The notes beneath the pieces were generated by a model. The model did not search any database. It saw nothing but the letters and a program-made list of their open reading frames with translations, and was not told where the DNA came from. A DNA stretch of 64,000 nucleotides from Octopus vulgaris. Taxonomy: Eukaryota. Shown here piece after piece: positions 4,303 to 59,833 of this stretch. The stretch lies in assembly GCA_951406725.2 (NCBI GenBank), contig OX597825.1, positions 71,982,001 to 72,046,000 on the forward strand. Direction: 5' to 3'. The position numbers and the translations under genes are program-made. The first letter of the stretch is position 1; every line of letters starts with the position of its first letter.

Positions 4303-5485
4303 CCCTCTCCAGCACCACCCTCCTCACCGGCACCCATCATCAACCCTATCACATCACCGACTCCTTCACCTGCACCTCTACCACTACCATCTCTGTACAT
4401 CGGACAAACGGGACGCCGCTTGGCTGACCTGTTCGCGGAACACCTCCGAGACATCCACCTCGGCAATGACACCCCGGTCTCACGCCATTTCCCCTCAACC
4501 GGTCACTCTTTGCAACACCTGTCCGTGTTCGGATTGTCTTTGCACAGAGGCACAGAGGCCATCCGGACTCCCGTTTGCGCCATGAACAGGGATTAATCTT
4601 CTCTCTTCGCTCATTTGTGCCACAAGAACTCAACTCTCCTCCCTTCTTCATCTAACCCCTCCCCTTGCCCCTCTCCCCCTCCCTCCTACTTCCTCTCACC
4701 CACCTCTCCTCTCTTGCTCCGACTCCTTCTCTTCACCCCACACTCTTTCTCTCTTCTCTCTTACTCTCTTCTCTTATACCCACCTTCCCCTTCCCCTTCA
4801 TCGTCAACCCTCCCTCATAAGCCCACCCCACCCCTACACATTCCTACCTCGCCTTCCCTTCCGTACACCCTCTCCCACATACCCCACCTCTATTCCCACC
4901 CTCTGCTTACCCACAAACCCCACCTCTATCCCTACCCTTTGCCTACCCACATACCCTCAACTCTACCCCAACCCTCAGCCTAAACCACACCCCACTCGTG
5001 CTTCCCCCACTCTCGCCTCCCCGACCTCCCAACAACATCACAACACACCACACTACACCATACCACACAACACATCACATCACAACACACCAACACTCAC
5101 ACACCAGCACTGACCAATTCCCATCCCCACATTTTCATACCTACACATACACACACGCACACGTCAAGATCACCAGCCTTCTTTCACACGCACATACGTA
5201 CTCTCTTACACATACGCGCACCTTCGTTTTGGGATCACGACTACTTTGTTATCTCCCCTACTTCTTAGCTCTCCTGTGTGACCCTTCTGTCCGGCATTCA
5301 CCATGATAGATCGGTAGCCACCACACACATTTTTTTCTCCTTGTTTTTTTTCTGTGTCCCTTTCTGTAGAAGAGCATAAGCTCGAAACGTTAAAGACTTC
5401 TTCAATTCCAGAGCGTTTTACTAATACATCAGTTTGTTTTCTACACCACCTGTCTTCGTCTTTTGTTTTCTTCGTGAATTCTCCC
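4303..5485 (+). mobile_element. Penelope-like element 3' fragment (GIY-YIG endonuclease remnant plus pLTR)
   Basis: SLYIGQTGRRLADLFAEHLRDI (GIY-YIG) in ORF 4105-4596; homologous to 57750-59011; ends in (TA). Confidence 0.88.
5360..5395 (+). ncRNA. Minimal type-I hammerhead-like motif in PLE pLTR (core variant CUGUAGA)
   Basis: cttt-CTGTAGA-a-gagc ataa gctc-GAAAC-GTT-aaag; stem I cttt/aaag. Confidence 0.55.
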
Positions 5486-5489
5486 TATA

Positions 5490-6795
5490 TAAATACATAC
5501 ATACATATATGTGTGTGCGTGCGTGCGTGCGTGCGTGCGTGTGTGATGTATTTGTGTGTCTCTATGCATCTGTGTGTGTGTATATTTATCCATTTACGGA
5601 CACGCACGAATCCGTACACGTATATGTTGCTCTATGTGTGTGTGCATCATGTGTGCATGTGCGTGCGAGGTTTATGTTCACATTTGCATACACGTGTGTG
5701 TGTGTGTGTATGTGTGTGTGTGTGTGTGTATGTGTGTGTATGTGTGTGTGTATGTGTGTGTATGTGTGTATGTGTGTGTGTGTGTGTGTGTGTGTATGTG
5801 TGTGTATGTGTGTGTGTATGTGTGTGTGTATGTGTGTGTGTATGTGTGTGTGTGTGTGTGTGTGTGTGTGTGTGTGTGTGTGTGTGTGTGTGTGTGTGTG
5901 TGTGTGTGTGTGTATGTGTGTATGTGTGTGTATGTGTGTGTGTATATGTGTGTGTGTGTGTGTGTGTGTGTGTGTGTGTGTGCGTGTGACTAGAACTCTT
6001 CAATTAAGCATTAGTTCATTAATCAACGATGACGCTACTTAAGTTACTAACTCGAAAGCAAACTTTGATTATTAAAGGATTGTTGACATTTTCAGAATAA
6101 GAAGAGTGGGGGGGGGGGTGAAGAGAGCGAGAAAGGGAGAACGAGGGCGGGAAAGGAAGAGCAACGGGAAGAGAAAGGGATGGCGAGAGAAATCTGTAAA
6201 GAGTAATGTGACAAAGTGTGTGGGTGTGTGAAAGGGAGGAAGAGGGAAGCAGCGAGAAAGAGAGAGAGAGAGAGAGAGAGAGAAAGAAAATGGTGTATTT
6301 CTTAAATGAGATGCACACACATACATACACACACACACATGGACATAGAGTCGATCATACAAAGGCATAATATAGTACATTTGTGTATGTGTGTGTATAT
6401 ATATATGTTTATATATGTACATACATATGTACGTCTCTCTCTATCTCTCTTTCTCCCTATATATATATACACATATATATATATATATACATACATAAAT
6501 ATATGAATATAGACATATATATATATATATACATATATACATATATATATACATACATACATATGTATATACACACACTCATATGCCCACACACACACAC
6601 AAATATATATGTATGCGAATGCTTTTACTATATATATATATATATATATATATATATATATATATATATATATATATATATATACATATATGTATATATG
6701 TATGCATGTATGTATGTATGTATGTATGTATGTATGTATGTATATGCGTATGTGTGTATGTATGTATACTAGTATGTGTCTGTGTCTGTGTGTGT
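5490..6795. repeat. (TG)n/(TA)n/(GA)n microsatellite cluster
   Basis: Direct reading. Confidence 0.9.
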
Positions 6796-56787: not shown

Positions 56788-59011
56788 TATATACCGTCAT
56801 CCCTCACCACGAAGGATTGCGGGCACTTCAACACTTTCTCGACCTCCGCCCCAACCCCGAACCCGACACCTCCACACTCATTCGTCTGGCCGAACTTGTC
56901 CTTTCTCTTAACTGCTTCTCGTTCGCGGGCGAGTTCTACCAACAGTTCTCGGGAGTGGCCATGGGAACGTGAATGGGCTCCAACTATGCGAACCTGTTCG
57001 TTGGCTATGTTGAGGCCCAAATATTCTCTAGTTTCACTGGTCCCACTCCCGAACTATACGGTCGTTCATTGACGACATTATCGGTGCCACCTCACTCTCC
57101 CGTGAACATCTAGACTCCTTCCTCTCTTTCGTTCAATCCTTTCATCCTGCCCTCCACTTCACCTGCACTATCTCCAACACCTCTGTCTCCTTCCTCGACA
57201 TTTCAGTCAGCATTCATCACTTCACTTTTACCACCTCCATTCACTACAAACACACAGACTCACACACATACCTAAACTTCTCTTCCTCCGACCCCAAACA
57301 CTCTAAGCTTTCCATCCCCTATTCCCAATTCCTCCGTCTACGTAGGCTCTGTAGTGACGACCATGACTTTGAGACTCAGTCTCAACTCATGGTTCGCCAC
57401 TTCATCCTACGTGGATACCCCCTCACCACTATCCACACCGCCCTTGCCAGAGCTCGTTCCGTAGACCGTGCATCTGCTCTCTCCCCCCGAACCCGCTCTG
57501 CAGTCTCCCACCTCCCTTTTCCCCTCACTTACCACCCCACCACCCTACCTCTCCAACGCACCATTCTTCGAGCTTTCCGGTATCTCCAGTCCGACCCGTC
57601 CACTTCATACCTCTTCCCTAACCGAACCCCCCTTCCTTCAAACGAGCCCATAACCTATGAGACCTCTTAGTCCACAGCTTCTTCCCTGACCCTACCTCCC
57701 AGCCTGGCTCGTTCCTCTGCTCCCGCCCACGTTGCCGCACATGCCCTTACCTCTCCAACACCACCCTCCTCACCGGCACCCATCATCGACCCTATCGCAT
57801 CATCGACTCCTTCACCTGCACCTCCAGCAATATCATCTATTGCATCTCCTGCTCTCTCTGCCATTCCCTGTACATCGAACAAACGGGACGCCGCTTGGCT
57901 GACCGGTTCGCAGAACACCTCCGAGACATCCGCTTCGCCAATGACAGACCAGCCTCACGCCATTTCCGCTCCACCGTCACTCCTTGCAACACCTGTCTGT
58001 ATTCGGATTGTCCTTGCACAGAGGTCATCCGGATTCCCGCTTGCGCCGTGAACAGGGATTAATCTTCTCTCTTCGCTCTTTTACGCCATTTGGGCTCAAC
58101 TCTCCCCCCTTTTCATCTAACCTCCTCCCGACTCCTACTTCTCCTCAGTCCTTCATCTTTTCACCCCTACTCCCTTTCCCTCTTCTTCCCTTCTTTCCCT
58201 TCTTCCCCCTTCTTCCCTCTTATTTCTTCTTCCCTCTTCCCCTTCTCTCTTTCTCCCTGCTCCCTCACTCCCCTTCTCTCCCCTCCTCTCCTCCTCCTCT
58301 CCCTACCACTCCCCTCTTCCCCCTCCCCTCCTCCCTTTCTCTTCTCTCCCCTTTCACTCTCCCCACAACCTCCACTTTACCCCAGCCCCCAGCCGAACCC
58401 ACACCCCACATGGGCTTTCCCCCCTCTCACCCCCACCTCCCCACAACATCACACCACAATACACTACACCATACGACATTACACATCACATCACAACACA
58501 CCACCCACAGCACACCGCCCACACACACCATCCCCAAATCTTTACACCTACACCCACATACACATACCATATCACAACACACCACCCAAACACACATCTC
58601 CATATCTCCACACCCACACATACATACATACACACGTCCAGACCACCAGCTCTCTTTCACACGCACATACTCTCTTATACACACACGCACATTCGTTCGT
58701 GTTGGGGCCACCTTCGTTTTGGAAGTCACTTGACCCTGTTATCTCCCCTACTATCCCTCTAGCGTCTAACGTCTGACCTCTGACCTCTGCCTGAAGTCAG
58801 AACGCCATGATAGACCGTTAGCTCCTACACGCATTTTTTTTTCTCCTTGTTTCTCTCCTTGTTTCTTTTCTGTGTATCTTTCTGTCGAAGAGCGTAGGCT
58901 CGAAACGTAAAACACTTGTTCTATTTCTATTCCTGAGCGCCATACTAATACATTTGTTTGTTTGTACTCCACCTGCCTTCATCTTTTGTTTATTTTCGTA
59001 AACATTCCCGT
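56788..59011 (+). mobile_element. 5'-truncated Penelope-like element (RT, GIY-YIG, pLTR) inserted in (TA)n
   Basis: YTVIPHHEGL, FYQQFSGVAMGT*MG..YANLF, (R)FIDDI, IPYSQFLRLRRLCS, NIIYCISC..YIEQTGRRL; stops and frameshifts; pLTR with HHR-like motif at 58879-58912. Confidence 0.93.
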
Positions 59012-59216
59012 TATATATATATTTATGTAAATGTATATATATGTATGTATATATATATATATATATATATATATATATATATATATATATATATATATAT
59101 ATATATATATATATATATATATATATATAATATATATATATATATATATATATATATATATATATATAAGTATATATATATATATATGTATATATATACA
59201 TATATATATATATATA

Positions 59217-59833
59217 TTGGTGAAATTAATTAATAACTAATTGATTTTACCCTTAATTATTGATAATATAATTCCTTTCTCCCTGCTCTTTTACTGCGGT
59301 TCTCACCGTTATAGTATGTTTACTAGATAACTCACGTGGGTGGAAGCGGGAAAAACATGAATCTTCACTTGTACTTTTTGAATTTGCTAGCACTGGCAGT
59401 TTGAAGATGTGTATGTCTGAGGTGATTCATTATCGGACGGGTATGTTCATTTTTTTAGTGCTTTCAAATCCAAAATTAAGAAATGTTGAGCTGACGAAGG
59501 AAATGCTGAGTTTTATTTCGGCTAATCTAGAAACGTGACGTTCTCAAATAATCTTTGTACTTGTGATATTTTACTGTTTTCCCTCCATATCTTCGTGAGT
59601 TATTTTTGAGTAAACACTATCTGGGAGACTTTTTCTTAAAGTAGTGGAAATAGCTAAAAAACTTTTTGGCTGCTATTTCTAATAATTTCAGTATGTGGCA
59701 AAGTAATTTATTTTACTAAGCCCTAATTATATAACGTAATATTTTGAATACGCCTTGAATGGTCCTTTTACATACTGAACACTACTTGGTGAAATTAATT
59801 AATAACTAATTGATTTTACCCTTAATTATTGAT
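59217..59833 (+). mobile_element. 569-bp-period element with 48-bp direct terminal repeats and an internal hammerhead (retrozyme-like)
   Basis: ttggtgaaattaattaataactaattgattttacccttaattattgat at 59217-59264 and 59786-59833; (TA)n on both sides. Confidence 0.8.
59486..59547 (+). ncRNA. Type-I hammerhead ribozyme (CUGACGA core, GUU cleavage)
   Basis: ttgag-CTGACGA-agga..gctgag..ttcggc..tcta-GAAACG TGA CGTT-ctcaa. Confidence 0.72.

Follow-up and report, generated by a model that had tools for sequence, protein, structure and literature searches.

The stretch of DNA analysed here, called the window below, covers 64 kb of the Octopus vulgaris genome (assembly GCA_951406725.2, contig OX597825.1, positions 71,982,001 to 72,046,000); it has 38% GC and is rich in microsatellites. 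The original prediction, made from the sequence alone, had listed about 16 type-I hammerhead ribozyme motifs in it. At all 16 positions a type-I hammerhead-like motif was confirmed, each with stem I, a CUGANGA-like box, stem II, GAAA, a short stem III, NUH and stem I again. The motifs form several families, as predicted, although ten are distinguished (A to J) rather than about nine, and all ten share the hammerhead architecture of Penelope-like elements (PLEs). About 14 independent insertions account for the 16 motifs, because those at 32197 and 33093 lie in a local duplication and those at 27215 and 27362 are two arms of one inverted insertion. Very probably, the motifs are a mixture of two known kinds: ten are truncated PLE ends from five families, and five belong to four families of units free of open reading frames (ORFs), likely retrozymes copied by the same enzymes. 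Family membership, upstream ORFs, head-to-tail ORF-less units, inversions, fixed 3′ ends and TA flanks are all directly visible in the genomic copies.

A relaxed type-I descriptor, tuned on the same window, gave 14 matches, 13 of them at listed positions, against a mean of 0.5 ± 0.6 (maximum 2) in 40 dinucleotide shuffles made in 1-kb blocks. A strict descriptor gave three matches in the window and none in the shuffles. The unlisted match at 37076 has no homologue in loci L233-L269, the numbered genomic loci being those gathered for comparison, and was taken as chance. Three listed motifs are missed by the relaxed descriptor. At 22242 and 34195 the stem II region is too long or stem III is imperfect, and both motifs were found by other inspection; at 24597 the GAAA box reads AAAA. 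The Rfam search of the window that had been proposed as a check yielded no hammerhead, with zero matches of any kind at the gathering threshold. At E ≤ 10, no hammerhead family was found in 27190-27430, nor among the 150 of 398 whole-window matches that were listed, which are mostly microsatellites matching miRNA models. This absence is not decisive for membership, as the minimal PLE forms differ from the modelled families, and the identification rests on the descriptor and on the variation among copies because Rfam gave no match. When single motifs are folded by minimum free energy, most fail to adopt the active fold, as would be expected of dimer-dependent forms, and these folds were not used as evidence.

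The core boxes C3-U4-G5-A6-N7-G8-A9 and G12-A13-A14, the A15-U16 pair, H17 and the three type-I helices are present in families B, D, E, F, H, I and J and in most copies of G. Within the window, the core is canonical or of the U3-A8 form in 9 of the 16 motifs. All four family A copies deviate at A6 (three U, one C), and single-position deviations occur at 9853 (U3 with G8), 23461 (A9G) and 24597 (G12A). Being one core position off, families A (A6U) and C (U3 with G8), as well as the copies at 23461 and 24597 in the window, were classed as hammerhead-like variants.

Family A is represented by the motifs at 5360, 15124, 20148 and 58879. Two of them lie downstream of coding relics on the forward strand. 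The first relic, a 5′-truncated Neptune-type PLE at 4278-5490, consists of a GIY-YIG endonuclease (EN) remnant (4278-4637), 3′ untranslated region (UTR) and a hammerhead at 5360-5395 with the core CUGUAGA and a predicted cut after 5391. The second, at 56787-59011, is a 5′-truncated and frameshifted Neptune-type PLE with a reverse transcriptase (RT) and GIY-YIG region (56787-58103), 3′ UTR and an A6U hammerhead (58879-58913). The other two are short 3′ ends on the reverse strand, one between TA tracts (15027-15205; hammerhead 15124-15161, A6U) and one whose 3′ part enters another repeat (20113-20248; hammerhead 20148-20183, A6C). This other repeat is a purine-rich degenerate tandem array at 19480-20110 with periods of 34, 42, 67 and 110 bp, which gives spurious core-box matches and continues into the 3′ part of the cassette. 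Elsewhere in the genome, L265 holds a complete family A element with two pseudo-long terminal repeats (pLTRs) around the ORF (pLTR-ORF-pLTR; RVT_1, E 1.6e-7; GIY-YIG, E 0.0076), each repeat carrying the family's hammerhead, and window positions 56790-58360 are 88% identical to this element. The repeats are direct at L265-L266, and a query with the family A RT found 13,394 genomic candidates.

Family B comprises three short 3′ ends of a second Neptune-type PLE on the forward strand, at 24529-24731 (hammerhead 24597-24631, with a broken GAAA box), 32131-32331 (hammerhead 32197-32231) and 33038-33227 (hammerhead 33093-33127). The last is the local duplicate of the second, the duplication measuring about 670 bp at 92% identity (31685-32354 and 32603-33250) and including the cassette. 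The 25 best matches suggested a fixed-length, 205-bp monomer resembling a short interspersed nuclear element (SINE), and neither inversion nor tail was seen in 25 loci. The SINE-like candidate was rejected, as copies extend upstream to a Neptune-type ORF. At the random locus L232, such an ORF ends in a tail 77-80% similar to family B. An exact 28-mer, with 299 matches in the genome, was used to select 40 copies, 14 of which have several hundred base pairs of upstream sequence in common; three of five extended copies reach a Neptune-type ORF about 2.2 kb upstream, and a fourth has a weak EN match. The B-linked ORF shares 50-65% amino acid identity with family A. The CX2-5CxxC linker and the DKG motif occur in both L265 and L232, and by these motifs A and B are filed under the Neptune clade.

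Families D, E and G appear in the window as 3′ ends of three PLEs of Hydra type. The D end lies at 14767-14909 on the reverse strand (hammerhead 14813-14897, canonical core, stem III ACAUAUGU). Family E contributes 560 bp of 3′ UTR at 20949-21508 on the forward strand (hammerhead 21415-21466, stem III ACAGCUGU), and G a forward-strand piece at 23452-23612 (hammerhead 23461-23506, the A9G change being confined to this copy). Other copies of D continue upstream into a GIY-YIG C-terminus, and the D cassette lies downstream on the same strand at all 20 best EN loci (500-600 bp away in 19, further in one). ORFs of 591-833 amino acids with DKT and CxxC..E motifs precede it in L253-L258, and inverted D copies occur in L253-L254. 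No Pfam RT match was obtained for these ORFs; the RT motifs were identified by eye, and although they line up with those of family A, the BLASTP comparison of D with A was not significant. The D protein has 424 homologues, the best from Argonauta hians; of the Hydra motifs it has DKT and CxxC..E, but it reads RWL and lacks the CxCx5C linker. The E piece of the window continues into EN in L271, L272 and L287, and its coding evidence consists of EN with CxxC..E and of the CxCx5C linker in L271 and L272. Family G continues into the RT C-terminus and/or EN in L419 and in L430/L433, one duplicated locus, with CxxC..E and a degenerate linker. D, E and G are filed as Hydra-type by motifs, matching most but not all of those of the clade.

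Hence, in other genomic copies, A, B, D, E and G were all traced upstream through the 3′ UTR into RT and/or GIY-YIG coding sequence, and 10 of the 16 motifs are 5′-truncated 3′ ends of Neptune- and Hydra-type PLEs. Pfam recognised no PLE domain in the window's broken frames. PLE hallmarks are nevertheless present among the copies, namely pLTRs or partial tandems, 5′ inversions and, in D, E and G, two classes of 3′ end. The original prediction had proposed a community of ribozyme-only mobile RNAs; with five of the ten families mapping to the ends of ORF-bearing PLEs, that proposal is retained for C, F, H and J (5 of 16 motifs, 4 of 10 families) and lost for the ten motifs above. Two side observations concern further PLE copies. 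G-like copies are often inverted pairs with the inversion point in or just before the hammerhead (L183 1918-1999; L218 4321-4412; L063; L080). A third PLE type, with a hammerhead overlapping the end of the ORF, occurs at L038 (2523-2939) and L229 (4285-4326 and 9622-9663); its EN C-terminus is presumably of Penelope/Poseidon character.

The five motifs of C, F, H and J belong to units of another make. In the window, a forward-strand fragment between TA tracts (9776-10063) represents C, whose tandem unit measures 470 bp and is ORF-less; the fragment opens with part of the unit's tail in inverted orientation (9776-9851), followed by the hammerhead at 9853-9921 with U3 with G8 and stem III ACCAUGGU. 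F is a 109-bp, hammerhead-only piece of a 593-bp unit on the reverse strand (22236-22344; hammerhead 22242-22336) with a short 5′ inversion. H is one insertion of a unit of about 350-363 bp with an inverted 5′ copy (27037-27631, no single strand), and its hammerheads at 27215-27264 (reverse) and 27362-27404 (forward) have a U3-A8 core and stem III ACAUGU. J is one 569-bp unit with 48 bp of terminal redundancy between TA tracts (59217-59833, forward strand), with a canonical core and a hairpin stem III in its hammerhead (59486-59547). Genome-wide, J units measure 567-569 bp. Each unit of the four families carries one type-I hammerhead, and the longest ATG-initiated ORF reaches 29-36 amino acids. 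Upstream of each unit lies the end of another such unit, an inverted piece or a truncation. Contiguous copies longer than one unit were found at 13 of 21 loci for F, 10 of 10 for J, 4 of 24 for C and 15 of 39 for H, and pieces on both strands at 16 of 21, 9 of 10, 13 of 24 and 12 of 39, respectively. F forms arrays of two or three units, with copies 99% identical over the query; F and J have a 200-bp region in common (73%), and 23 of 24 H copies have the U3-A8 core.

None of the 94 loci of these four families has a colinear PLE ORF; the few PLE protein matches lie 200-1,400 bp away or on the opposite strand (L099). L035, with two H copies 3.2 kb apart, was considered as a full PLE and rejected. 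As circles, the units are predicted to fold more stably than their shuffled versions (z of -4.0 for F, -9.9 and -5.1 for J, -4.7 and -5.0 for H, -2.8 for C), with z from -1.1 to +0.5 for three PLE 3′ UTR controls. No RNA record was listed for the F unit. Most of it is covered by contigs from four runs whose RNA nature is a guess; such contigs are uninformative on expression, strand, ends and circularity, and their single back-joint is also expected from tandem DNA. Judging from sequence features, these ORF-less, head-to-tail units of 350-594 bp are likely to correspond to non-LTR retrozymes, and we infer that they use the RT and endonuclease of PLEs. Further tandem families were noticed in passing. 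One, in L301-L329 and L330, is ORF-less, partly tandem and resembles H, with a U3-A8 core in 16 of 16 copies and the stem III variants ACUGCAGU, ACCGCGGU and ACUGCGGU. Another, with a 533-bp period and stem III ACAAUUGU (L212 1065-2228; L248 5-621), is a further retrozyme candidate.

The remaining motif, of family I, lies at the 3′ end of a longer element (34140-34323, reverse strand; hammerhead 34195-34282, canonical core, long stem II) whose upstream part is microsatellite-like over 1.5 kb or more. Our guess, from its resemblance in form to D and E, is that it may be a PLE 3′ UTR.

Other relics in the window are a LINE fragment with an Exo_endo_phos match (endonuclease-RT; 46222-47811, forward) and a DDE_Tnp_1_7 fragment (18633-18962, reverse). 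A reverse-strand frame at 3797-4222, without a Pfam match, is presumably mariner-like. What is presumably an octopus SINE appears among the listed ORFs, in keeping with the lineage. A separate repeat of about 95 bp with many genomic copies is inserted at TA tracts at 20852-20945 (forward) and in L298, L299 and L441. It consists of a hairpin, a GAAAC box and a near-palindrome, lacks the CUGANGA box, and could be a degenerate or half-core motif.

It had been predicted that most cassettes are bounded by (TA)n. A (TA)4 tract lies within 150 nt of the cut on both sides in 8 of the 16 window motifs, and for 59486 at both element ends, but none lies within 600 nt of 5360, 27215 or 27362. At the 3′ ends of genomic copies, a (TA)4 tract, found at 5% of random positions, starts within 12 nt of the end in 48 of 56 B copies, 14 of 28 D copies (20 of 22 at the second end), 16 of 34 I copies (9 of 12 at the second end), 10 of 18 for F, 5 of 13 for E, 3 of 9 for J, 3 of 12 for C and 3 of 24 for G. 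The C first-end and G second-end patterns, which gave no match, and the A pattern, with four copies only, were not counted. TA targeting, as originally proposed, is thus strong in several families, and many of the non-TA cases arise because copies continue into the element's own tail or into the next unit. Hydra-1_Obim of Octopus bimaculoides is listed with a (TA)n preference (Craig et al. 2021, PMC8557442). Two classes of 3′ end occur in D, E, G and I, and the PLE 'tail' has been tied to two internal RT start sites (Frangieh et al.). After several 3′ ends the template continues with a TATA-like word, which suggests possible microhomology with the target. As for 5′ ends, among incidental copies 6 of 22 alignments of A and 15 of 29 of B start 102-113 nt upstream of the cut. 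In A this is partly an effect of subfamily divergence, yet 6 of 18 other copies begin there beside unrelated DNA, and the preference may mark the start of pLTR transcription.

The window is not a special locus, as such motifs occur throughout the genome at about 4 per 64 kb, a density that the window exceeds about 3.5-fold. Sixty 10-kb stretches spaced evenly over the assembly (600 kb of 2.80 Gb, 227 contigs) gave 38 matches to the relaxed descriptor (6, 2 and 5 after shuffling) and nine to the strict one (none after shuffling); homology searches with the window's own motifs found 31 copies. These densities, about 56 relaxed and 15 strict motifs per Mb, extrapolate to about 1.6e5 relaxed motifs per genome (Poisson interval 1.05-2.2e5, too narrow as matches cluster) and 4e4 strict ones. 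All families are dispersed repeats; a DNA query brings up 650-3,300 candidates at first look, figures that are lower bounds and not copy numbers. Long TA tracts number 71 in the window against 49 expected, and across the sample TA tracts and motifs are weakly correlated (rho 0.25, p 0.05).

The PLE-type hammerheads with self-complementary stem III that had been predicted are seen across families. Stem III is a perfect palindrome in 41 of 42 D copies, 34 of 40 for E, 28 of 33 for H, 17 of 20 for B, 14 of 19 for C and 15 of 31 for I, where 14 more have a G-U form. In F it is self-complementary with G-U pairs, and in G and J it is a short hairpin. Such palindromy agrees with the dimer model proposed by Cervera and de la Peña (PMC4209133). 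It is possible, though rather doubtful, that the hammerheads are largely non-catalytic passengers or protein-binding folds and that mobilisation proceeds without cleavage, a view compatible with the genealogy given above. Inserted copies span the cut site uncut, and no 5′ pile-up was seen there in the small numbers of incidental A, C, D, E, F, H and J copies; G alignments starting at 0 to +12 proved on inspection not to be explained by cut-site starts. U6 is found in 24 of 25 family A copies, ORF-bearing elements included, with N7 varying freely. In family C, U3 occurs with G8 in 17 of 19 copies and an extra base precedes GAAA. Changes at A6 lower hammerhead activity, and A6C has low Mg-dependent activity (Perreault et al. 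and a 2020 study; PMC3088659, PMC7151607); the term A6U was not found in a single literature search aimed at it. In the anole PLE, hammerhead mutants had no effect on insertion in vitro (PMC11167929). On the other hand, ten families with unrelated stems keep the core, N7 varies while its neighbours do not, and stem III variants stay self-complementary (ACAUAUGU/ACAUGU, ACAUGU/ACUAGU, and the G-U forms ACAUGUGU and ACGUGCGU). The conservation of core and stem III points to selection on an active dimer fold.

A less probable alternative concerns C, F, H and J, which could be DNA minisatellites that originated in PLE ends, their spread being due to unequal crossing-over or duplication and not to RNA. 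They do occur as tandem arrays; a DNA-level route has been discussed, and cleavage was seen in only one of nine Xenopus dimers (Li et al. 2026, bioRxiv 10.64898/2026.07.22.740005). We consider this improbable, as the copies, in arrays of one to three units, are dispersed over many contigs and are truncated to varying extents or inverted at the 5′ side, while their 3′ ends are fixed and lie beside TA, which is the published insertion pattern of PLEs (PMC8557442, PMC11167929). That all cassettes are essentially independent ribozyme-only mobile RNAs, as the 100-300 bp, ORF-free and TA-bounded form of most window copies and the SINE look of family B (with 15 of 29 incidental alignments starting 103-113 nt upstream of the cut) might suggest, is highly improbable, since A, B, D, E and G reach PLE coding sequence in other copies and the ribozyme-only form is refuted for these five of ten families.

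Several observations weigh against the preferred mixture of PLE ends and retrozyme-type units. No sequence link was found between C, F, H and J and the 14 autonomous loci tested, neighbouring insertions aside (some J matches among these loci stem from a microsatellite within the J reference copy). Family H has a weak TA preference (3 of 40 and 8 of 32), in part because its copies run on into the unit. Values of z ≤ -2.5 were also reached by three of 12 random genomic stretches, and for this reason the folding signal is weak for C. Family I had no ORF in 55 loci and three extensions. Finally, the loci come from best-match searches, in which long and young copies are over-represented.

If the mixture is taken as the basis, the insertions could have arisen as follows. 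The GIY-YIG endonuclease of a PLE would nick AT-rich or (TA)n DNA, and RT would start at one or two fixed internal sites of the RNA, about 45-300 nt downstream of an uncut hammerhead. Synthesis would usually stop early, so that most copies would consist of a hammerhead and a tail, in many cases joined to an inverted 5′ piece. Hammerhead dimers would cleave retrozyme RNAs into single units, which may circularise; insertions of more than one unit would result. Repeated insertion into (TA)n tracts, and expansion of these tracts, would produce local pile-ups such as the window.

Both kinds, truncated PLE ends and retrozyme-type units, are already known in other animals. As in the pLTR hammerheads of metazoan PLEs (Cervera and de la Peña 2014, PMC4209133), stem I is short, an extra nucleotide lies between positions 9 and 10.1, stem III is palindromic, the U3-A8 variant occurs, and each genome holds many families, for the most part as lone motifs left by truncated elements; pairs on opposite strands, 100-700 bp apart, are found in both as well. 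The numbers differ, with an estimated 1.5e5 or so relaxed motifs here against about 9,000 in Xenopus tropicalis, counted with different descriptors. A family-wide A6U (A) or U3 with G8 (C) was not found in the accessible sections of that paper. With the Hydra clade (Craig et al. 2021, PMC8557442), the Hydra-type families share the C-terminal EN, the DKT and RW motifs, CxxC..E and CxH around EN, canonical hammerheads and (TA)n insertion. D departs from it in having an Asn-rich stretch for the CxCx5C linker and RWL for RWK, in a comparison by motifs alone. DKG, the CX2-5CxxC linker, a GIY-YIG with internal cysteines and pLTR-ORF-pLTR (L265) recall the Neptune clade, unlike the U6 of the family A hammerhead and the preferred start of short A and B copies about 105-110 nt upstream of the cut.

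The C, F, H and J units resemble animal non-LTR retrozymes (PMC7229834; bioRxiv 10.64898/2026.07.22.740005) in being ORF-less, low-GC, head-to-tail units with one type-I hammerhead each, in their predicted self-paired circles and in co-occurring with PLEs. Units of 470-594 bp lie above the range of 170-400 nt stated for invertebrates but within 51-972 bp (Li et al.). Unlike the described retrozymes, they form short arrays with 5′ inversions, their hammerheads are PLE-type and not canonical with loop 1-2 contacts, and no partner with homologous pLTRs was found. No survey of cephalopod hammerheads or retrozymes was found in the literature searched, subscription journals and Repbase being outside its scope; the supplements of Li et al. 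could list further species. The main text of a 2026 curated octopus repeat annotation (PMC13282606) mentions neither ribozyme nor hammerhead. The novelty lies in the host lineage and the scale, in the marks of PLE insertion on ORF-less units and in the A6U core being fixed.

In total, the load estimated for these 2.8 Gb is comparable in order of magnitude to that of the axolotl, where 126,247 canonical motifs have been reported in 28 Gb. Young ORF-less families, such as F with its 99% identical copies, that bear inversions and fixed 3′ ends give genomic support to the still unproven mobilisation of retrozymes by PLEs. Likewise, a fixed change at A6 in a very large PLE family with intact ORFs is a handle on whether PLE hammerheads need to cleave. 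More tentatively, the octopus may hold one of the densest and most varied hammerhead populations among animals, with some 1e5 motifs from dozens of families. At least four retrozyme families would then replicate as circular RNAs and be inserted by resident Penelope enzymes, leaving the PLE signature of tails and inversions, and the hammerhead of the most abundant PLE family, fixed for A6U, would need dimer formation or the help of a protein to cleave. If both the circular-RNA retrozymes and this reading of A6U were true, the octopus would offer a natural system to learn who mobilises retrozymes and what the hammerheads of PLEs do.

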